From: Terriglobia bacterium
GTDB lineage: Bacteria; Acidobacteriota; Terriglobia; 20CM-2-55-15
Length of the DNA: 64,000 nt
Direction of reading: 5' to 3'
Assembly (NCBI GenBank): GCA_965218585.1
Contig: CBDCLE010000010.1
Span: 128,001 to 192,000 of the forward strand
Shown here: piece by piece, positions 4,303-33,647 of the stretch
How the letters are laid out: each line of letters opens with the position of its first letter
How positions within the stretch are numbered: position 1 is the first letter of the stretch
Notes under the pieces: model-generated
The model's database searches: none
Told to the model about the DNA's origin: nothing
What the model saw: the letters and a program-made list of their open reading frames with translations, nothing else
Position numbers and translations under genes: made by a program

Positions 4303-5838
4303 GGCTCTTGTCAAGAAAGTTGTGTTTGAGGAGGGGATCATAAGTCCTCCTCAAAGCGGGATTGGAACATGGCGTTGAGCTGATGAAGAGCGGAATGGAT
4401 GGAAGTGGCCGGAGATTTCCAACGGCCGTTGTGGAGGTGAGAGACGGCCAAGCCGAGTTTGAACTTGAGGGTGTCTTCGGAGTGAAAGTAGCCGCCCGAA
4501 TTGCGGCGCATAATTTCCAGTTGTCCGTTGACGGCCTCGACGAGGTTGGTGGTGGAAAACGATTTGCGCATGAGGTCGGGATACTTGAGGAAGGCGAGAT
4601 AGTGAGTCCGTTTCTTGCGGAGCCCCGCGATCCAGGAGGGATAGTGCTGGGCGAAGCGGTCACAGAGTTCCTCGAACCCTTGGTTGCCGACATCCTCACA
4701 CCAGGAGGACTTGATGGCACGGAAGCGTTGCTGAAACTCGGCGGCGTCGGATTTGGAGAGATGGCTCTTAGCATTGCGCTGCATGTGGACGGTACAGAGC
4801 TGGATATCAGCATTGGGAAAGAAGCCTTCGCTGACCTTGAGAAGGCCGGAGAAATCGTCCTGGACGAAGATCATGACGCGTCGGAGACCGCGCTCGATCA
4901 GAGAGCGGAGAACCCCCTTCCAGTCTTCGAGATTCTCGCGGCCGGGTTTGGCAATGCAGGCCAGGACACGCTTCTTGCCGTCGCGGCCTAGACCCACCAC
5001 CAGGTAGATACAGGCCGGACGCAGCCGGTCGCCGTCGCGGAGTTCGACGTACTTGCCATCCACGAATAGGGCCAGCAGATCCGTGTCCAGTGGCCGGCTG
5101 TTGCCAAGATCGAGTTCTTCGATCAGGCCCGACGCCACCCGTTCCAGATCCTGTTGGGACCCGGACAGGCCCATCTTCTGAAGCGCCTCCCGGGCCGCAT
5201 TGACCGAACGGGATGAGGCCAGCAGTCCCAGCAAGATGGACTCGACTTCTTCAGGGTAGCCGCGCTGATACGGGGATGGTAGGTTCGCGGGACGGAAATC
5301 CCCGTTACGGGTTCGAGGGACACGGATATCGATCGGAACGCTGCCCACTTGGAGGGAGCGATCGTAAAAACCATTGGGACGGTCGTCGGGGCGGTGTTCA
5401 AGATGCAGGTCCCGTTCGGCCACACTGAGGCCCGACAACAGGGTCCCCAGTACCTCGCGCAGGCTCAGATCGGCCAGCCCGGAGGCCAGCAGGGTCTGGA
5501 TCTGTGTTTTTGTGGATTCAGAAATCTGTTCTGATGGTACGCTTTCATTCGGATCTGTAGACATTGGGTTCAACTCCATAACTGAATAACTGATGACTCA
5601 GGTCTAGGGCTCCAGCGTGAACTGGAGCCCGCTTCAATTTCAGCGGGCGACGGGGGCTGTGGAAACTGCCGGGCCTATGGAAATCGGGGGAATCGGTCGC
5701 CTTCGGCGGCTTCTTCTTGATGATTTCCACAGGCCCTTGGAACACCTCCGGCGTCCGCACAGTTCCCACAGCCCGGACGACGAATCTATCATTCTCTCTC
5801 AACTGGAAATCACGAAACACAACTTTTACGTTACTCCC
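4303..5838 (-). mobile_element. IS256-family element (copy A)
   Basis: Imperfect TIRs ..AAAGTTGTGTTT (to 4327) and AAACACAACTTT.. (ending 5838) enclose the transposase; no target duplication. Confidence 0.8.
4338..5579 (-). CDS. IS256 (Mutator) family transposase
   Basis: RNG.Y.R-like motif, RVPRTR, LFVDG, QLCTVH..RN, STTNLVE motifs. Confidence 0.9.
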   Translation of the reverse strand: MELNPMSTDPNESVPSEQISESTKTQIQTLLASGLADLSLREVLGTLLSGLSVAERDLHLEHRPDDRPNGFYDRSLQVGSVPIDIRVPRTRNGDFRPANLPSPYQRGYPEEVESILLGLLASSRSVNAAREALQKMGLSGSQQDLERVASGLIEELDLGNSRPLDTDLLALFVDGKYVELRDGDRLRPACIYLVVGLGRDGKKRVLACIAKPGRENLEDWKGVLRSLIERGLRRVMIFVQDDFSGLLKVSEGFFPNADIQLCTVHMQRNAKSHLSKSDAAEFQQRFRAIKSSWCEDVGNQGFEELCDRFAQHYPSWIAGLRKKRTHYLAFLKYPDLMRKSFSTTNLVEAVNGQLEIMRRNSGGYFHSEDTLKFKLGLAVSHLHNGRWKSPATSIHSALHQLNAMFQSRFEEDL

Positions 5839-7124
5839 AGCCTGATCCCGCGGCGCGCGGGGGAGCGAGTGAAGACGGATCGGCGCGACGCGGTGAAGCT
5901 GGCGCGGCTGCATCGGTCGGGGGAGCTGACGGCGGTGTGGGTGCCCGACGAGGAGCAGGAGGCGATGCGCGACCTGACGCGGGCGCGCGAGGACATGAAG
6001 GCGATCGAGGCCAAGGCTCGGCAGCGACTGGGGGCGTTTCTGCTGCGTCATGATCGAGTGTATCGGGAAGGCAAGAGCCGGTGGACGCAACGGCACTTTC
6101 GGTGGCTGGAGGAGCAGCGGTTCGAGCATCCGGTACAGCAGGTGGTGTTTCAGGAATACGTCGATACGGTGATGGAGGCGCGCCGCCGCGTGGCGGGCCT
6201 GGAAGGGCAGATGCGCGAGGTGTTGGAGCAGTGGTCGCTGCGTCCGATGGTCGAGGCGCTGATCGCGTTGCGCGGGGTGGATGTGGTCACGGCCATGACG
6301 GTGCTGGCCGAACTCGGGGACCTGACGCGTTTTGACTCGCCGCGCGAGTTGATGAGCTTTCTGGGGCTGGTGCCGAGCGAGCACTCCTCGGGGCCGCGGC
6401 GGCGCCAAGGAGCCATCACGAAAACAGGCAATGGACACGTGCGCCGCGTGCTGGTTGAATCGGCCTGGAGCTACCGGTTCCCTGCGCGCAAAACCAGGCA
6501 CTTGAGATGCAAGGCGAGTGCGGCGCCGCCAGCAGTGCAGGCCATCGCCTGGGCAGCCCAGAAGCGGCTGTGTGCGCGGTACCGGCATCTGTATAGCGCG
6601 GGCAAGGCGAAGTGCGTGGTCACCACCGCGGTGGCCCGCGAGCTGGTGGGGTTCATCTGGGCGATTGCTTGCGAGGTGATGGGCCGAGCCCATGCAACGC
6701 GGGCGCGGAGCTGAGAGATGGGCCGGAGTTCTCCACACCTTGCCACTGCTCCGCCGTGTATTCGAAGCACGCGGTGCCATGGACAAGGTGTGGAGAACTC
6801 CTCCGACGCCTCCCCGGGCGCAATGCCATCATGCGCTTCCGGAGCAAGGCTGGACCCAAAAAACGTAATGTGTTGGATTCAGGGCGTGGCAGGCCGGTGA
6901 GGAGAATCCTCGTGCACGCTATGAGAGGCTTGGCTCAGCCAGACCGACCCACGTCCTTAGACCGAGGCAGCTCCGCGACGAAGTGATGTCAGGTGGTAGC
7001 CAACCCACGAATATCAGAGTGATCCACCGTCGCGAATCATGCCGGCCGCGCCCTGAATCCAGCACATTGAAGGAGGCGCATTCGAGAAACGTAACGGAAG
7101 CTTGACAGGGTCAATCCATATCAG
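5839..7124 (+). mobile_element. IS110/IS1111-type element copy 1, 5'-truncated by IS256
   Basis: Near-identical (about 4 SNPs) to 19285-20570; starts mid-transposase right after the IS256 TIR; ends GGTCAATCCATATCAG. Confidence 0.9.
6715..7122 (+). ncRNA. Putative bridge/seekRNA region of IS110 copy 1
   Basis: Same structured right end as 20161-20568. Confidence 0.7.
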
Positions 7125-7380
7125 CGTACGATTTTTTCCGTTTCGTGAGGTGACCCCTACAAACGCCGCACGTCGGACGAGGAGACCGTCTTTCGGTCCA
7201 GCGTCAGGTTCAGCCACGCCAGCGCGGGAGTACTCGTCAACGATGAGGCGGTCAAAGAGGCCAGGGCTTTCGGAAGTCTCCAGGGCTGAGAAGACCGAAT
7301 GCCCGTTCAGCAGTAGATCAGCCCGCAACGCAGCGCGTCCAGCAAAGAGAACGCCGCCGGGCAGGGATGTGCATGGCGGG

Positions 7381-18748: not shown

Positions 18749-19029
18749 CCCCAATGAGCATCATCACTCCCCCTGTCGGGGTGTCGCAAAAGTCCCACGA
18801 CCCCGTAGAATTGCAACAATGACTTGTGCGACAGGGTTTTGCAACGCAATCCGCGTCCTGATCCTGCGTCGTGAGCCTTCCCCGTTACCTGTCGCGGAAC
18901 CGACCGTTTTGCGACGGTCGCACTCACGGCCTTAGACACCATGGATTGACCTGCCCTGGCCTCGTACGCGTGGGTTATGTTGCGGGGCGAGGAACCTTCG
19001 ACACAGAGCCACAACGAGGAGGGCAGGTC

Positions 19030-20160
19030 ATGAACAAGTGTAGTGCATACGTTGGACTGGACGTTCACAAGGACACGATCGCGGTGGCGGTAGCGCTGCC
19101 CGGACGTGAGGCGCCGGTGTACCGGGGCGAGATCAAGAATCAACGCAAATCGCTGCTGCGACTCATTCGCAGCCTGAGTCCGCACGCAGAGGTGTTGAGC
19201 TTCTGCTACGAGGCGGGACCGTGCGGGTATGGGGTGTATCGAGAGATCATCGACACCGGCCACTATTGCGAGGTGGTCGCGCCGAGCCTGATCCCGCGGC
19301 GCGCGGGGGAGCGAGTGAAGACGGATCGGCGCGACGCGGTGAAGCTGGCGCGGCTGCATCGGTCGGGGGAGCTGACGGCGGTGTGGGTGCCCGACGAGGA
19401 GCAGGAGGCGATGCGCGACCTGACGCGGGCGCGCGAGGACATGAAGGCGATCGAGGCCAAGGCTCGGCAGCGACTGGGGGTGTTTCTGCTGCGTCATGAT
19501 CGAGTGTATCGGGAAGGCAAGAGCCGGTGGACGCAATGGCACTTTCGGTGGCTGGAGGAGCAGCGGTTCGAGCATCCGGTACAGCAGGTGGTGTTTCAGG
19601 AATACGTCGATACGGTGATGGAGGCGCGCCGCCGCGTGGCGGGCCTGGAAGGGCAGATGCGCGAGGTGTTGGAGCAGTGGTCGCTGCGTCCGATGGTCGA
19701 GGCGCTGATCGCGTTGCGCGGGGTGGATGTGGTCACGGCCATGACGGTGCTGGCCGAACTCGGGGACCTGACGCGTTTTGACTCGCCGCGCGAGTTGATG
19801 AGCTTTCTGGGGCTGGTGCCGAGCGAGCACTCCTCGGGGCCGCGGCGGCGCCAAGGAGCCATCACGAAAACAGGCAATGGACACGTGCGCCGCGTGCTGG
19901 TTGAATCGGCCTGGAGCTACCGGTTCCCTGCGCGCAAAACCAGGCACTTGAGATGCAAGGCGAGTGCGGCGCCGCCAGCAGTGCAGGCCATCGCCTGGGC
20001 AGCCCAGAAGCGGCTGTGTGCGCGGTACCGGCATCTGTATAGCGCGGGCAAGGCGAAGTGCGTGGTCACCACCGCGGTGGCCCGCGAGCTGGTGGGGTTC
20101 ATCTGGGCGATTGCTTGCGAGGTGATGGGCCGAGCCCATGCAACGCGGGCGCGGAGCTGA
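19030..20160 (+). CDS. IS110-family DEDD recombinase/transposase
   Basis: VGLDVHK, YEAG, KTDRRDA (DEDD); GLVPSEHSSG serine loop; ITKTGN. Confidence 0.95.
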   Translation: MNKCSAYVGLDVHKDTIAVAVALPGREAPVYRGEIKNQRKSLLRLIRSLSPHAEVLSFCYEAGPCGYGVYREIIDTGHYCEVVAPSLIPRRAGERVKTDRRDAVKLARLHRSGELTAVWVPDEEQEAMRDLTRAREDMKAIEAKARQRLGVFLLRHDRVYREGKSRWTQWHFRWLEEQRFEHPVQQVVFQEYVDTVMEARRRVAGLEGQMREVLEQWSLRPMVEALIALRGVDVVTAMTVLAELGDLTRFDSPRELMSFLGLVPSEHSSGPRRRQGAITKTGNGHVRRVLVESAWSYRFPARKTRHLRCKASAAPPAVQAIAWAAQKRLCARYRHLYSAGKAKCVVTTAVARELVGFIWAIACEVMGRAHATRARS

Positions 20161-20568
20161 GAGATGGGCCGGAGTTCTCCACACCTTGCCACTGCTCCGC
20201 CGTGTATTCGAAGCACGCGGTGCCATGGACAAGGTGTGGAAAACTCCTCCGACGCCTCCCCGGGCGCAATGCCATCATGCGCTTCCAGAGCAAGGCTGGA
20301 CCCAAAAAACGTAATGTGTTGGATTCAGGGCGTGGCAGGCCGGTGAGGAGAATCCTCGTGCACGCTATGAGAGGCTTGGCTCAGCCAGACCGACCCACGT
20401 CCTTAGACCGAGGCAGCTCCGCGACGAAGTGATGTCAGGTGGTAGCCAACCCACGAATATCAGAGTGATCCACCGTCGCGAATCATGCCGGCCGCGCCCT
20501 GAATCCAGCACATTGAAGGAGGCGCATTCGAGAAACGTAACGGAAGCTTGACAGGGTCAATCCATATC
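20161..20568 (+). ncRNA. Putative bridge/seekRNA (target- and donor-binding loops at ~20347-20480)
   Basis: Nested stems; loop segments match both insertion flanks and the circle junction (see findings). Confidence 0.75.
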
Positions 20569-21279
20569 AGCGTGCAAAATCGCACCGATCTGCCTGATAC
20601 CCTATCTTCACCACACTGCCGGTGGTGCCGGTGACCCAGTGATTTTCAGGCGATAGCGTGAGTGGGGTTGACTGCGGCGTGGATTGCAGCTGGATGAATC
20701 CTTCCGTCGCTTGTCCGAGTCTGGCGATGCGCTCGACATGGCTTGTTTCCAGCTTGCCTATGCGATCAACTCACCTGACTCCACCTTACCTGCGCGCTCG
20801 CGCAGGGCGGCAATGTCCCTGGAACGCGCTTAAGCTTCGGGTCCCACCTCTTCAGGCGAGATCCAGGCGAGCAACAGGCGGGGCCGATTGCCGCAGGGCA
20901 GATGGGTGTCGATCCCGGCGGACATCCCGAGCGTGCAGGGTCCGTTGCGCCGGACATACCGATACCGGTGACCGGGGGTGGGTGCGGGGCAGAGAACACG
21001 GTGCCAGGAGCCGCGCCATGAAACCCGGATCGGGAACCGCTTCACTGGCCCCGTCAAGCGGGTCCCGCTGATCGAAACGGGAGAAAGGGCGCTGCGCCTG
21101 GGGTGAGTGCTCGGGGGCTTGCTTCACAAGCCCGTCCGAGAGCAAAAGGGATGACCCCGGCCGCCGGGTTCCGATCGATATGTTTGCGCCGGGCCGAAGA
21201 ACCGAACCGACGATCCTTCTATAGAAGGGTACTGACCAGATTCGTGTAGAGTCGCGGGGAGGCGCGTAGCCGGTAGGGG

Positions 21280-30951: not shown

Positions 30952-31213
30952 CCTCTGGTTACGTCCCCAAAAGACATTTCAACGCAGAGGCGCAGAGGTC
31001 GCAGAGACCTATATGATTTCTGCGGTCTTCGCGTCCCTGCGTCTCTCGGTTCTTGCGAGGAAGCTGAAGGCTGATCGCCGATCGCTGGGGCGTATCGGCA
31101 GGTCGCGGCGACGACATAAGCAAAAAATGCCGGGTAGGGAGATTTTTCTTATAGAAGCTTTCATGCCTTCGCACAATGCATATGCAGTTTCAATAACTTG
31201 CAGCCGATTTTAG

Positions 31214-31231
31214 TTCGGCGCGACGCGTGCT
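31214..31231 (+). promoter_or_regulatory. Possible sigma-54 promoter for flgD
   Basis: GG(31217)-N10-GC(31229) spacing, imperfect consensus. Confidence 0.3.
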
Positions 31232-31256
31232 CTAAATAGTCCCGAGGAGGAAAACG

Positions 31257-31514
31257 ATGATTGAAACAATTTTACCTACATCTTTGGGCGATCGGGCGCC
31301 GGCGCTTCCGATGTCGAAGGCCGAGGAACAGAAGTCGCAGTTCCTGCAGTTGCTCGTCGCCCAGATGAAAATGCAGGATCCCCTCAATCCAATGGACGGC
31401 ACCGATTTTGTGGCGCAGTTGGCGCAGTTCACCAGCGTCGAAGAATTGATCAATATCCGGCAAGCCATGGAAAACGTCGAACAGGCGCTAGGGCAGACAG
31501 GTACAACGCTATAA
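31257..31514 (+). CDS. flgD: Flagellar hook-capping protein FlgD N-terminal domain; stop codon supplied by the IS110 left end
   Basis: FLQLLVAQMKMQDPLNPMD..DFVAQLAQFTSVE. Confidence 0.85.
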   Translation: MIETILPTSLGDRAPALPMSKAEEQKSQFLQLLVAQMKMQDPLNPMDGTDFVAQLAQFTSVEELINIRQAMENVEQALGQTGTTL

Positions 31515-31614
31515 GGAAGGACGCCCCTTTGTCGGCTGTTGCCAGGAGGAAAATCTCCCGACAACAACCCATTCAACGTAGCTGCGTTGAATTCAAAGAC
31601 AAAGGAGCACGTAA

Positions 31615-32676
31615 ATGAAACAGGCCAAGTATATCGGCATGGATGTGCACCAGGCAACGACGGTGGTGATGGTCTTAAACGCAGACGGCAAACTGGTCTG
31701 GGAAAAGATCGTAGAGACCCAGGCCGGGCCAATCATTGATTTGCTGGAGAGTCTGAGTGGTGAGCTGCACGTGACGTTTGAAGAAACCACGCAGGCCGAA
31801 TGGCTCTACAACGTGGTCCGGGGATATGTGAGCGAAGTGATCGTGTGTGATCCCAGACGGAACAAACTGCTCAGTGACGGGTCCAAGACCGACCGGGTGG
31901 ATGCCCTGAAACTGGCCGAGCTGCTCCGGGCCGGATGGCTGCGGTCGGTCTACCACGGGCACGATGCGACGCGGACGTTGAAAGAACTGGTCCGCGGATA
32001 TGAGACCTTGACCCTGGATACGCAGCGGACGATGGTTCGGATCAAGGCAATGTATCGAGGACGTGGGATCCGGACGCCGGGCCACGGCGTCTACCTCCCA
32101 TCGCAGCGGGAACACTGGATCGAACAGCTCGCCAATACCGGTGCACGGCGGCGTACCGGATGGTTGTATGAGGAGCTGGATCATCTGAGAGGGTTAAGAA
32201 AAAAAGCGAAGCTGGCGATGTTAACCGAGAGCCGCAAGCATCGTGCGGTGGGGATATTGCAGACGATTCCCCAGTTGGGACCGATACGTTGCGCCTTGAT
32301 TGTAGCGACGGGGGACACCCCGCATCGATTTCGAACCAAACGCCAGCTCTGGAACTACAGCGGTCTGGCCGTGGCAATGCACATGAGTGCGGAGTATGAG
32401 CAGGAAGGGAGTCGTGTGGTACGTCGTCGAAAGCCGATCGCCACGCGGGGACTGAACCGCAACGGCAACCGACGTTTGAAAGATGTGTTCATCGGGGCGG
32501 CGACCGGAGGCATGGGGGCCGAACCTTGGAAAAGCTACCTGGAGGGGCTCCAGAAAGACGGCAAGCGTAAGGAGATGGCTCGGCTGACACTGGCGAGGAA
32601 GATTGCAGCGACCGCACTGAAGATGTGGAAGAAAGGAGACACGTTTAACGCAAAGAAACTGAACTTGGCGACATAG
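31615..32676 (+). CDS. IS110-family recombinase/transposase
   Basis: IGMDVH, FEET, KTDRVDA; TIPQLG, RF...QLWNYSGL. Confidence 0.92.
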   Translation: MKQAKYIGMDVHQATTVVMVLNADGKLVWEKIVETQAGPIIDLLESLSGELHVTFEETTQAEWLYNVVRGYVSEVIVCDPRRNKLLSDGSKTDRVDALKLAELLRAGWLRSVYHGHDATRTLKELVRGYETLTLDTQRTMVRIKAMYRGRGIRTPGHGVYLPSQREHWIEQLANTGARRRTGWLYEELDHLRGLRKKAKLAMLTESRKHRAVGILQTIPQLGPIRCALIVATGDTPHRFRTKRQLWNYSGLAVAMHMSAEYEQEGSRVVRRRKPIATRGLNRNGNRRLKDVFIGAATGGMGAEPWKSYLEGLQKDGKRKEMARLTLARKIAATALKMWKKGDTFNAKKLNLAT

Positions 32677-33061
32677 CCGTTTCCAGACTTCTGCCGACAG
32701 CGCGAGGCATTCGACCGCTCGTCGTCGGTGAGGCGTCGGAACGGTAGGGTCGAGGGTGAGGATCCGATACGCGGTTGGCACACAGCGCTTGCTGAAGGCC
32801 CATGTAATACTCTATCCCCCCTCGCACGACCTGGAAAAGCGATAGCCCTCGAGGCTCAGATAGAACCGTGGTCGGCAATCACGACCCCTTTGCGCTTTTC
32901 AGTTTCTCGAAACCACACCACGTTGTGATGAGTGATCGACTTCTCTGCGATGCCGGATCAACAGTTCGTCTCAACGGAGACAGGGGCTGGCTGCCACGAC
33001 AGTGTTGGGTCCGGTGGTCCGCTCGGCGGGGACGTGTTTCTCTTGACAGCCCCTTCCATAG
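32677..33061 (+). ncRNA. Putative bridge/seekRNA region (loops at ~32753-32875)
   Basis: 10-nt perfect antisense match to the right flank and 7-nt match to the donor junction inside stem-loops. Confidence 0.72.
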
Positions 33062-33064
33062 AAC

Positions 33065-33647
33065 CGCGTATGAAGTCGGGCCACCTCAGTCGGTCACGCC
33101 AATTCAACAAGAATTCACATTCAGCCAGGGATTGCGCGGTGGAGTTCGACTCAACGTTGCCACCTCAGGTCATTGGGGAGAAGAGTTTGTGTACAGCTTC
33201 GAAACCAACGAAGCCAAATTCGTCACCGTGAGCCCTCCGGCCGCGGATCTGGAACTGGGTATGCAGATCCACCAGTTCTCGGTCAACACCCTCTACTACA
33301 TCGATGCTGACGAGGATCTGACGGTCCGACCGTTCCTGACCTTTGGAATCGGTGCCACAATGTACCGGCCCACGGACGAAGCCAAGGCGATCGCTCGCGA
33401 CCCGTTGCGTGGCAACCTGGGTGGAATCGATACCTCCACGGAATTCGCGTTCAACTATGGCATCGGTCTGAAGGCCAGGATCAGCGACAGAATCGGCTTC
33501 CGCGTCGACGGAAGGGGCTATTTGTCCAGAACGCCGTCGTTCGGATTTGCCCGCTCATCTTCGGACCCGAACGCCACGGTTTTTCCTGCCGGCGGAGCGT
33601 TCCACAACGGTGCTGCCACTGCAGGACTGATCTTCTACTTGAATTAG
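33065..33647 (+). pseudogene. Outer-membrane beta-barrel protein lacking its N-terminus
   Basis: RPFLTFGIG, FAFNYGIGLK, IGFRVDGR, aromatic C-terminus; no signal peptide after the IS boundary. Confidence 0.7.

Follow-up and report, generated by a model that had tools for sequence, protein, structure and literature searches.

Selection of insertion sites by an IS110-family element

The question raised by this locus is how an insertion sequence present in 16 copies within one genome, at 99-100% identity and each at a different site, selects its DNA targets. The locus lies in the window, i.e. the whole 64,000-nucleotide stretch of Terriglobia bacterium DNA herein analysed, and the first-pass annotation had read it as a bridge-RNA recombinase with its RNA guides. 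This reading is supported by the flank logos of the copies and by relatives that share the RNA scaffold and carry loop words fitting their own flanks. Very probably, the element is an active IS110-family insertion sequence of IS1111-group layout, targeting DNA via a bridge RNA (seekRNA) encoded downstream of the recombinase gene.

Boundaries, core and genomic copies of the element

The element proper covers 31508-33062 (1555 bp, about 1.56 kb), with one AC core per side. The span of 31499-33071 given at first is wider, taking in 7 nt of flank on either side. Outside the RNA, its features are as follows.

31499-31505, + strand: left target half-site (LT), AGGTACA in this copy; the flank logo gives ..GTAAT as 15-copy consensus
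31506-31507, + strand: left AC core dinucleotide
31508-31614, + strand: left end and 5' non-coding region, 107 nt
31510-31515, + strand: -10-like TATAAG within the left end
31510-31520, + strand: degenerate subterminal repeat TATAAGGAAGG within the left end
31615-32676, + strand: recombinase gene (353 aa), with DEDD (RuvC-like) domain, coiled coil and Transposase_20 domain
32877-33042, + strand: rest of the 3' non-coding region after the RNA, which in a 12-element alignment shows a conserved GGGGCTG..TGCC motif and, immediately ahead of the -35, a T-rich run
33043-33062, + strand: right end, with -35 TTGACA (33043-33048), subterminal repeat arm CCTTCCATA and terminal ATAGA
33063-33064, + strand: right core copy, AC here
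33065-33071, + strand: right target half-site (RT), CGCGTAT, from the flank logo

Within the set of copies used for the flanks, one (L014) was without left anchor and one (L015) without exact right anchor. Among the 14 copies with both anchors, 13 measured 1558 nt over the compared span with at most one difference, and the remaining copy was 1 nt shorter. As in other IS110 elements, a short core is present at both junctions with no long target duplication: AC was found at all 15 left junctions and at 11 of the 16 right junctions, the others being AA (4 copies) and GC (1 copy). The AA and GC right junctions, together with the flank of copy L010 (counted among the AC right junctions), which is one base shorter, are left unexplained by the 2-nt core model.

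The extent of the core was also indicated by the reading frames interrupted by the element. The L004 copy splits a glycosyltransferase, for which the frame was restored only by removing 1557 nt, that is, the element plus one AC, in agreement with the domain matches. After joining the flanks of 15 copies, the removal of 1557 nt gave the longest spanning frame in 10, with 2 ties, while a 1-nt shift was better in 3; this open-frame test is noisy in a genome of 57% G+C, and domain matches backed the L004 case only. The core had been proposed as (A)AC; the dinucleotide AC holds and AAC does not, given the 15 invariant left junctions and the 1557-nt frame of L004. Two other core models, one with the right end ATAGAA followed by AC or CC and one with a CG core, were rejected because AC terminates both left guides of the RNA (see below) and the L004 frame calls for 1557 nt rather than 1558 nt.

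Genes hit by element copies are a flagellar flgD-like gene as well as those for a glycosyltransferase and an outer-membrane protein. The flgD-like gene on the left flank of the window copy was found in 6 related genomes, where it is an ORF of about 100 aa with flgE next to it, whereas an outer-membrane gene lies to the right of the element in the window. Since the neighbours of the flgD-like gene thus differ in the relatives, the two flanks of the window copy are no plainly interrupted site from which the empty target could be read.

For the IS1111 group, inverted repeats of 7-17 bp close to the ends (subterminal) are described. In the window element, the longest exact run is 6 nt, which was reached by 68 of 500 shuffles, and 9 of 11 positions match by eye with a 2-nt gap. 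Of 11 relatives, 9 have a longest exact run of 7-10 nt and the other 2 one of 6 nt.

The recombinase belongs to a divergent branch

The recombinase matched Pfam families PF01548 (63.1 bits, cut-off 29; 3.4e-17) and PF02371 (37.2 bits, cut-off 21.3; 3.9e-9). In an alignment of 12 sequences, D10, E56, D93 and D96 are invariant, and the position of S258, located within GLAVAMHMSA and which we take to be the nucleophile, is S or T in all 12. The IS110 loop motif, as defined in PMC11187229, is G-L-x-P-x4-S/T-G; at its Pro position all 12 sequences carry V or I, and the residue following S/T is A, S or G. On the NCBIfam profile NF033542 ('IS110 family RNA-guided transposase'), the recombinase aligned over positions 1-342 of 343 with 129.5 bits against a cut-off of 140, which is an annotation threshold and not a biological criterion. 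The score below this cut-off indicates that the recombinase clade is a divergent branch.

A PDB fold search with the predicted model (pLDDT 84.9) placed at ranks 1-10 exclusively bridge-RNA complexes of the IS621 and ISCro4 recombinases (E 7e-15 to 3e-13, probability 1.00, 359-363 aligned columns, TM 0.43-0.51). The sequence similarity to these recombinases is weak (E 4e-7 to 2e-9), with 21-24% identity in the fold alignment.

Predicted bridge RNA downstream of the recombinase gene

The non-coding region of the element is longer downstream of the gene (386 nt) than on the 5' side (107 nt), as is characteristic of the IS1111 group. Within this region, the predicted RNA begins about 75 nt after the recombinase stop, is about 125 nt long, and forms two stem-loops, each with a large internal loop.

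32748-32876, + strand: predicted bridge/seek RNA gene, target-binding then donor-binding stem-loop, as matched by covariance model R1
32751-32824, + strand: target-binding stem-loop, outer stem CGAGGG..GGAT (32751-32763) pairing with ATCC.CCCTCG (32814-32824)
32767-32776, + strand: right target guide ATACGCGGTT, located 5' in the loop and antisense to (A)AC+CGCGTAT (top strand)
32777-32799, + strand: small inner hairpin of the target-binding stem-loop
32802-32810, + strand: left target guide ATGTAATAC, i.e. (AT)GTAATAC, 3' side of the loop; the logo backs GTAATAC (32804-32810) only
32827-32874, + strand: donor-binding stem-loop (consensus structure), outer stem CGACC (32827-32831) with GGTCG (32870-32874), inner stem AGCC (32844-32847) with GGCT (32853-32856)
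32836-32843, + strand: tentative right donor guide AAAGCGAT, antisense at 6/8 positions to AACGCTAT of the left end (31505-31512)
32860-32866, + strand: left donor guide ATAGAAC, right-end word ATAGA plus core AC, identical to 33058-33064

All the sequences named in the first-pass annotation, including the stems, the ATAGAAC repeat and the 6/8 match of AAAGCGAT, were found where it had placed them.

The evidence for this RNA came from comparison between relatives. Both stem-loops were recovered by RNAalifold. For 12 sequences, 94.3% of cells pair as compared with 85.2% for shuffled sets, and compensatory (both-sided) changes occur at 8 of 19 base pairs; none of 500 shuffles reached this. When 54 distinct sequences were used, 96.7% of cells pair, again reached by none of 500 shuffles, and the frequent G-U pairs fit the strand of the recombinase gene only. 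A full-length match of the RNA model was found downstream of the recombinase gene at all 80 Acidobacteriota loci searched, and the recombinases of the relatives that share the scaffold are 43-69% identical. In the window, the R1 match (113.5 bits) was the sole one. Stability gives no argument for the structure because the thermodynamic folds were no better than shuffled sequence, either for the stem-loops (z +0.30), for the whole 3' non-coding region (z +1.73), or for its tail and spacer; an Rfam scan of 31000-33600, with E up to 1, gave no match.

Assembled contigs from four of 22 listed sequencing runs (two RNA libraries and two of unrecorded kind, taken as DNA) were also searched. Contigs from the RNA libraries cover 31640-33071 in pieces with a variant of the element at 95-99%, although such cover is no proof of transcription; no RNA start or end could be seen in them. 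No joint corresponding to a circle junction or an empty site was found among the contigs of the four runs, which is no evidence against a circle.

A very unlikely alternative is that the hairpins function at the level of single-stranded DNA rather than RNA, for instance within a circular single-stranded intermediate, with the loop words pairing DNA to DNA. The RNA is known here from sequence alone, DNA likewise tolerates wobble pairs (G-T), and IS621 is reported, in the abstract of a 2026 preprint (10.64898/2026.08.31.748434), to excise mainly a single strand. On the other hand, the structure is specific to the sense strand of the gene and lies behind the one plausible promoter, recombinase-RNA complexes are the nearest folds, and, as stated in PMC11187229, RNA from this region is co-purified with related recombinases and acts in trans.

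Guide sequences in the target-binding loop agree with the insertion sites

The perfect 10-nt antisense pair pointed out at first, ATACGCGGTT in the loop and AACCGCGTAT on the right flank (33062-33071), was confirmed as an inverted pair. Within the window copy alone, this complementarity is at chance level, as four perfect 10-nt inverted pairs occur in the same 1671 nt; the significance of the guide match comes only from the other 15 copies and from the relatives.

The comparison of flanks, proposed in the first-pass annotation as a check, was performed for 15 copies, and the logos match both loop words. The right flank reads C10/A5, C14, G13, C13, G13, T12, A9, T10, the antisense of the 5' loop word, while the left flank reads G10, T8, A12, A7, T9, then invariant AC, the same as the 3' loop word. 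The overall logo is GTAAT-AC, the insertion sequence, and AC-CGCGTAT. Being of the same sense as the left flank and core, the left target guide would pair with the bottom strand. Against the left flank and core of the window copy, ATGTAATAC matches only at 6/9, as had been noted; since the left-flank logo fits the 3' loop, this low match reflects a weak site and not a wrong guide. About 19 single genomic sites with a perfect ACCGCGTAT are unoccupied.

Relatives carry the same scaffold with other loop words, each matching its own flanks. In a set of 12 elements (11 genomes; recombinases 43-51% identical), the 5' loop agreed with its own core and right flank at 8.08 of 9 positions on average and with flanks of other elements at 4.99, and the 3' loop agreed with its own left flank and core at 6.67 of 8 and with others at 5.33; in both cases the sum was reached by 0 of 20000 permutations. 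The analysis was then enlarged to 30 elements, consisting of these 12 and 18 representatives with distinct 5' guides. From 82 matches of the RNA model, 63 were parsable for right end and flank, of which 2 nested partial copies were dropped. For the 30 elements, the 5' guide matched its own 8-nt right flank at 6.67 of 8 and others at 3.93 (0 of 20000 permutations), and a match of at least 7 of 8 was observed for 22 of 30 own pairs against 4 of 870 other pairs. For a sister family with 24 distinct insertions, the left logo is C[C/G]ATT[A/T]C-AC and the right flank TCATTGAC, and its RNA carries CCATTACAC and GTCAATGA. Two properties of a bridge RNA or seekRNA, namely, covariation-supported stem-loops with internal loops and target-loop words that covary with insertion-site flanks, are thus present.

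These comparisons bear directly on the view that the complementarity is a by-product, in which the protein prefers certain DNA sites and the loops resemble them by chance or by descent from a captured copy of the target. The chance level of the 10-nt pair within this one copy and the ordinary stability of the folds would be in line with it, but the 30 elements carry different loop words each fitting its own flanks, and separate sides of the loop read both target strands at fixed scaffold positions. Contradicted already by the 12-element, 30-element and sister-family comparisons, this view is hardly credible, and the loop words are best taken as guides.

In this RNA, the match to the top strand lies 5' of that to the bottom strand. 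The same order, with the non-coding region downstream, is given for IS1111-type elements in the part of Siddiquee et al. (PMC11187229) referred to here.

Donor-binding loop and junction promoter

The left donor guide, ATAGAAC, repeats the right end and core. In elements with GC, CG or TC as junction core, the left guides of the target and donor loops both contain that core, and the one of the donor loop also follows the end variant ATAGG in G029. The assignment of AAAGCGAT as right donor guide is weakly supported: its 6/8 antisense match, as claimed at first, is correct, while its own-versus-other signal is weak (5.33 versus 4.75 of 8; 136 of 20000 permutations reach the sum, with the row of the window element mis-parsed).

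It is conceivable, if unlikely, that only the first stem-loop is a guide (a target seekRNA), the second being structural or protein-binding and the ends being read by the recombinase through the subterminal repeats. In favour of this, the right donor guide is barely better for its own left end than for others, and ATAGAAC and the right end hardly vary within the family, which leaves most of their identity without covariation; furthermore, the relatives have exact subterminal repeats of 7-10 nt, and the main RNA species of ISEc11 is described in PMC11187229 as a short one of 82 nt with target matches only. What argues against it is that the left donor guide tracks all four cores (AC, GC, CG and TC) as well as ATAGG in G029, that one compensatory change between the 5' side of the donor loop and the left end was seen by eye between two G078 elements, and that IS621 and ISCro4 use the two-loop design, as described in PMC11208160. 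We therefore keep the reading with both a target loop and a donor loop.

For the promoter suggested to form at the joined ends, the arrangement TTGACA-N18-TATAAG was confirmed in the sequence: TTGACA (33043-33048), when joined via ATAGA-AC-GC to TATAAG (31510-31515), is separated from it by 18 nt. In 10 of 12 elements, TTGAC is kept at a distance of 14 nt from the right end, and no promoter-like site was found on the + strand inside the linear element.

Proposed mode of transposition

From published work on IS621, ISEc11 and ISEc21, the element would be excised as a circle joining ATAGA-AC-GCTATAAGG. The circle junction would set the right-end TTGACA 18 nt from the left-end TATAAG, forming the only sigma-70-like promoter, which would drive the recombinase gene together with the RNA that follows it. 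Within the first loop, the 5' side (ATACGCGGTT) would base-pair with the core and right target on the top strand, AC-CGCGTAT, and the 3' side (GTAATAC) with the left target and core on the bottom strand, GTAAT-AC; the 5' side of the donor loop (AAAGCG) may pair with the left end. The predicted recombinase-RNA complex would hold the circle junction by one loop and a genomic site resembling GTAAT-AC-CGCGTAT by the other, and exchange strands at the AC core. If the more tentative subfamily reading given below holds, the choice of target would be dominated by the right guide of 9-10 nt, with the left half loosely read; this could account for left matches being weak and for insertion both into genes and into other copies' guide DNA.

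Relationship to known RNA-guided elements

The closest layout is that of ISEc11, ISPa11, ISKpn4 and ISPst6, as described in the relevant parts of Siddiquee et al. 2024 (PMC11187229). Shared with this group are a recombinase of about 350 aa followed by a long non-coding region, an RNA with the top-strand segment 5' of the bottom-strand segment and both matches overlapping where insertion takes place, a promoter that arises solely from the circle junction (here predicted), subterminal repeats (here putative), and relatives with different targets. The element differs from them in the catalytic loop (GL-A-V-x4-S-A here, GL-x-P-x4-S/T-G in theirs), the degenerate subterminal repeat and the hosts (Acidobacteriota here, Proteobacteria for theirs), and in being known so far at the level of DNA sequence only.

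With IS621 and ISCro4, so far as covered by the material used from Durrant et al. 2024 (PMC11208160) and PDB entries 8wt6-8wt9 and 9t56, the element shares an RNA with a target loop and a donor loop, each of which takes the left half from the bottom strand and the right half from the top strand (in the donor loop here, the right half tentatively), a 2-nt core within the pairings, and the overall fold of the recombinase. The RNA of IS621 is, however, encoded in the left end, upstream of the gene, and its core is CT instead of AC.

The window contains a second IS110-family element (18932-20573), likewise with a DEDD recombinase, a downstream non-coding region and several genomic copies. The two recombinases are 25% identical; the second one scores 264.7 bits on NF033542 as compared with the 129.5 of the present one, and its element has a clear 12-bp subterminal repeat, different ends and flanks, and no match to RNA model R1.

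We conclude that the element adds a well-supported case to the RNA-guided bridge/seek RNA transposons, which were first reported in 2024, and represents no new type of system. Whether it also stands for a distinct IS1111-like subfamily, very common in Acidobacteriota, with an altered loop, a reprogrammed scaffold of about 125 nt and targeting dominated by the right guide, is a more tentative proposal, which we consider possible but doubtful. At least 551 related stretches were found. The proposed subfamily has the catalytic loop GL-A-V/I-x4-S/T-A/S/G and an NCBIfam score below the naming cut-off, and its compact scaffold is associated with at least 26 natural guide pairs and the four cores AC, GC, CG and TC. 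This scaffold could be orthogonal to those of IS621/ISCro4 and of the second element in the same genome.

A 2012 survey reportedly treats mobile elements in Acidobacteria. Our literature search on bridge RNA or seekRNA in Acidobacteria, a poorly discriminating one, had no bridge or seek term in any of the papers listed. The tables of predicted bridge RNAs by Durrant et al. may already include relatives of this element.

Significance

RNA-guided IS110/IS1111 recombinases are under development as programmable tools for DNA insertion, excision and inversion. The present element is a clean natural case, occurring 16 times in one genome with a target logo that can be read, and its Acidobacteriota clade, with one RNA scaffold, many guide words and four cores, makes a natural reprogramming data set, from which one could learn where the scaffold is free to change and how stringent the reading of each half-site is. 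The same cell offers a candidate second, unrelated recombinase/RNA pair for testing of orthogonality. The current picture of how such elements work is unchanged; for its host, the element is a recent, active mutagen of the genome.

Organization of the element

The sole long open reading frame of the region encodes a 353-aa protein that matches both Pfam DEDD_Tnp_IS110 (3.4e-17) and Transposase_20 (3.9e-9), each over the cut-off. The coding region is located near the left end, with 107 nt of non-coding sequence on the 5′ side and 386 nt on the 3′ side, the latter containing both stem-loops; the sequence common to the copies runs from ACGCTATAAGG (31506) to CCATAGAA (33063).

31508-33062, IS1111-type insertion sequence
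31615-32676, + strand, recombinase gene (353 aa)
32767-32776, right target guide (first loop, 5′ side)
32802-32810, left target guide (first loop, 3′ side)
32860-32866, left donor guide ATAGAAC (second loop, 3′ side)

The first-pass annotation had read this region as an IS110-family element with bridge-RNA guides, and every word that it quoted was found in place upon re-reading. The perfect 10-nt inverted pair 32767-32776 / 33062-33071 is unremarkable by itself, being one of four such pairs in 1671 nt. The folding stability of the stem-loops in the window element was no better than that of shuffles, and an Rfam scan of the element region gave no match. The case therefore depends on the other copies and on the relatives.

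Within 32985-33042, a GGGGCTG..TGCC motif some 60-70 nt from the right end is conserved at the same place in 11 relatives, and a T-rich run directly precedes the -35 TTGACA in the window and in these 11. The fold of 32985-33042 in the window element was no better than shuffles; this region may function as a terminator or as a protein-binding site.

Target site and core

The 26 contigs of the window's genome carry 16 copies of the element with 99-100% identity, all at different places, and 16 of the 27 IS110-type DEDD domains detected by family search belong to the 353-aa protein. Among the 14 copies with both anchors, 13 are of the same length with at most one difference and one is a single base shorter. 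The 15 readable left flanks carry G (10), T (8), A (12), A (7) and T (9) before an AC that is present in all 15, and are random beyond these five positions; the 15 right flanks carry C (10) or A (5), then C (14), G (13), C (13), G (13), T (12), A (9) and T (10), and are random afterwards. From these counts, the site preferred by the element is GTAAT-AC-CGCGTAT. This logo, proposed beforehand as a check, matches both sides of the first loop, the 5′ side ATACGCGGTT being the exact antisense of (A)AC-CGCGTAT and the 3′ side (AT)GTAATAC having the same sense as GTAAT-AC. The left guide had been doubted for its 6/9 fit to the flank of the window copy; the fit was confirmed but the doubt was not, because the guide matches the 15-copy consensus and the window copy thus occupies a poor left half-site.

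No unoccupied perfect site GTAATACCGCG was found in this genome against about 2 expected, and about 19 empty single sites have a perfect ACCGCGTAT. Another repeat, TACTCGGTGCCGACCGCGTATGTGGGA, present in six copies in the genome, also carries the perfect ACCGCGTAT without the IS (for example at C10:144273, window 16273).

The left target guide GTAAT-AC and the left donor guide ATAGA-AC both terminate in AC, which was found at 15/15 left and 11/16 right junctions. The exceptions at right junctions are AA in 4 and GC in 1, and the flank of one copy (L010) is one base shorter; we suppose that the first core position is tolerant or subject to mismatch resolution. One copy (L004) interrupts a glycosyltransferase: its left flank gives a weak Glyco_trans_4-like match, the Glycos_transf_1 match on its right flank starts from position 51 of the 172-position profile, and the two halves are in frame only when 1557 nt (element plus one AC) are removed. 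In a noisy test over 15 copies, the open frame spanning the joined flanks was longest with the same removal in 10; there were ties in 2, and a 1-nt shift did better in 3.

The window copy interrupts a flgD-like gene at codon 83 (31257-31514 / 33063-33647). In relatives this gene has a total length of about 100 aa and is followed by flgE; on the right of the window copy stands an outer-membrane beta-barrel gene lacking its N-terminal part, and tblastn detected no flgE N-terminus in the window's genome. These mismatched flanks suggest that DNA between IS copies was deleted or rearranged, so that the two flanks probably derive from two different insertions. What looks like a dispersed short repeat lies upstream of the flgD-like gene: the roughly 30-nt word at 30977-31007 recurs often in the window's genome and in several relatives, with 90-96% identity.

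Natural reprogramming among relatives

A six-frame protein search of 401 same-phylum genomes (E up to 1e-20) identified the recombinase in 22, the window's genome included. Eleven more elements, with recombinases 43-51% identical, were examined in full and follow one common plan: a left end of core-GCATTATGAAAGG, the gene, a spacer of 74-150 nt, two stem-loops, a tail of 169-212 nt and a right end of TTGACA-N8-ATAGA-core. The loop words vary among these relatives, and every one fits its own flanks; for instance, five copies in genome G216 are flanked by TGGGCC-AC and AC-CCGCC, and their RNA has ATGGGCCAC and TGGGCGGGAT. In the 12-element matrix, the 5′ loop matched core plus right flank at 8.08/9 for own against 4.99/9 for foreign pairs, and the 3′ loop matched left flank plus core at 6.67/8 against 5.33/8, the observed sum being attained in 0/20000 permutations for either side.

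In a wider scan using one genome per species, at least 551 related stretches were detected, and 80 loci were retained; among the matches listed, almost all records with a name are metagenome-assembled genomes of Acidobacteriota. In 80/80 loci, a covariance model made from the RNAs of the 12 elements gave a full-length match downstream of the gene, at 72-114 bits (82 matches in total), and parsing of right end and flank in 63 of the 82 yielded 26 distinct guide pairs. For a 30-element set (18 representatives with distinct 5′ guides plus the first 12), the 8-nt right flank without core was matched at 6.67/8 by own and 3.93/8 by foreign guides; a match of at least 7/8 was found in 22/30 own against 4/870 foreign pairs (0/20000 permutations attain it). 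A sister family with 24 distinct insertions shows the left logo C[C/G]ATT[A/T]C-AC and the right flank TCATTGAC, and its RNA spells these flanks as CCATTACAC and GTCAATGA. Where the junction core is GC (G203), CG (G157) or TC (L061-L065), the identical core is present in the left target and left donor guides.

At one locus (L051, genome G078), a complete copy is directly followed by a partial copy with its start (GCCTAAC|CACAGG) exactly past the left target guide; either the element or a recombination event took another copy's guide DNA as a half-matching target here. Second model matches are listed alongside this case at L074, L076 and L103.

Conserved RNA structure and donor loop

RNAalifold on the 12 sequences recovered the outer stem of each stem-loop, together with the inner one of the second, with changes on both sides in 8 of 19 pairs. 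Pairing cells amounted to 94.3% against 85.2% after shuffling (attained in 0/500 shuffles), and fell to 31-48% when partners were shifted by 1-3 columns; for 54 distinct sequences of the wider set the value was 96.7% (0/500) in an alignment that was model-fitted. Since the stems contain numerous G-U pairs, which would be A-C on the opposite strand, the structure lies on the sense strand of the recombinase gene.

The identity of ATAGAAC, on the 3′ side of the donor loop, with right end plus core was upheld; it tracks end and core variants among relatives, including an ATAGG right end in genome G029 with ATAGG also in the donor loop. On the 5′ side, a conserved A-rich stretch ending in GC opposes the left end GC(A)TTAT. 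The right donor guide proposed there, AAAGCGAT, fits weakly, with own ends at 5.33/8 and foreign at 4.75/8 (136/20000 permutations, the window row being mis-parsed), and its assignment is tentative.

The recombinase

All 12 sequences share D10, E56, D93 and D96. The C-terminal loop GLAVAMHMSA was compared with the motif G-L-x-P-x4-S/T-G described in PMC11187229: the Ser/Thr position is S or T, and the Pro position V or I, in 12/12. The best solved relatives by sequence are the recombinases of ISCro4 (1.6e-9) and IS621 (4.2e-7), and the top ten PDB matches of an AlphaFold model from the 12-sequence alignment (mean pLDDT 84.9) were IS621 and ISCro4 chains complexed with bridge RNA and DNA. The next fold ranks were TIGR-Tas and Nop5-type proteins, and residues 128-290 gave a weak NCBIfam TIGR-Tas endonuclease match (1.7e-8; 34.7 bits against a cut-off of 100). 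The bridge recombinase fold has been linked with the TIGR-Tas/Nop5 families, with which the fold ranking and the weak match agree. The NCBIfam IS110 naming model scored 129.5 bits, below its 140-bit cut-off, against 264.7 for the other window element; judged by sequence, the recombinase clade reads as a divergent IS110 branch.

Putative junction promoter and proposed cycle

The linear element has no promoter-like site on the + strand. As the first-pass annotation had predicted, joining of the ends produces TTGACA, 18 nt and TATAAG. In 12/12 elements the -35 position is 14 nt away from the right end (exact TTGACA in 10/12), and in 11/12 a -10-like hexamer (at least 4/6 matches) follows 16-19 nt past it. 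For ISEc11, the sole promoter found is the circle-junction one in the account of Siddiquee et al. (PMC11187229), where IS1111-type elements are described as carrying their non-coding region downstream, with the match to the top strand coming first (5′) and that to the bottom strand second; the window element shares this guide order and layout. As in IS621, the core is part of the pairings. From the promoterless linear element, the predicted junction promoter and the ISEc11 parallel, we infer a cycle in which the element would be excised to a circle, the circle-junction promoter would transcribe the recombinase gene and RNA, and the circle junction would undergo RNA-guided strand exchange at AC with a GTAAT-AC-CGCGTAT-like site.

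Four of 22 sequencing runs, all available as contigs, were examined. In the two taken as DNA, depth was 27-88 over the element and 2-3.4 over the flanks, as expected since it is multi-copy. In the two metatranscriptome libraries, contigs of a 95-99% variant span 31640-33071 piecewise, including both stem-loops; differences were found at 32802-32803, two outer, non-conserved guide positions, and none is listed inside 32767-32776 or 32804-32810. No joints were reported in contigs of the examined runs. The metatranscriptome contigs are compatible with, but not proof of, transcription of the element.

A second IS110-family element

The annotation of 18932-20573 as another IS110-family element was borne out.

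19030-20157, recombinase of the second element (376 aa)

The recombinases of the two elements are 25% identical. In the second element, a perfect subterminal repeat (CCATGGATTGACC / GGTCAATCCAT) extends over about 12 bp, and some 410 nt of non-coding sequence lie downstream; its ends and flanks are unlike those of the 31508-33062 element, and the covariance model gave no match on it. At least 5 full copies plus fragments are present in the genome, and window 5836-7127 is a 5′-truncated copy of this type, 99.6% identical over 1292 nt.

The flank logo, the own-flank loop matches in relatives and the conserved RNA structure support the bridge-RNA recombinase reading. The 31508-33062 element is a new and well-documented case of an IS1111-type RNA-guided insertion sequence, a kind described in 2024. 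Its clade is large, somewhat divergent and of Acidobacteriota. The element holds no new mechanism; what makes it valuable is the natural reprogramming series, together with the presence, within one genome, of a second, unrelated candidate recombinase/RNA pair.
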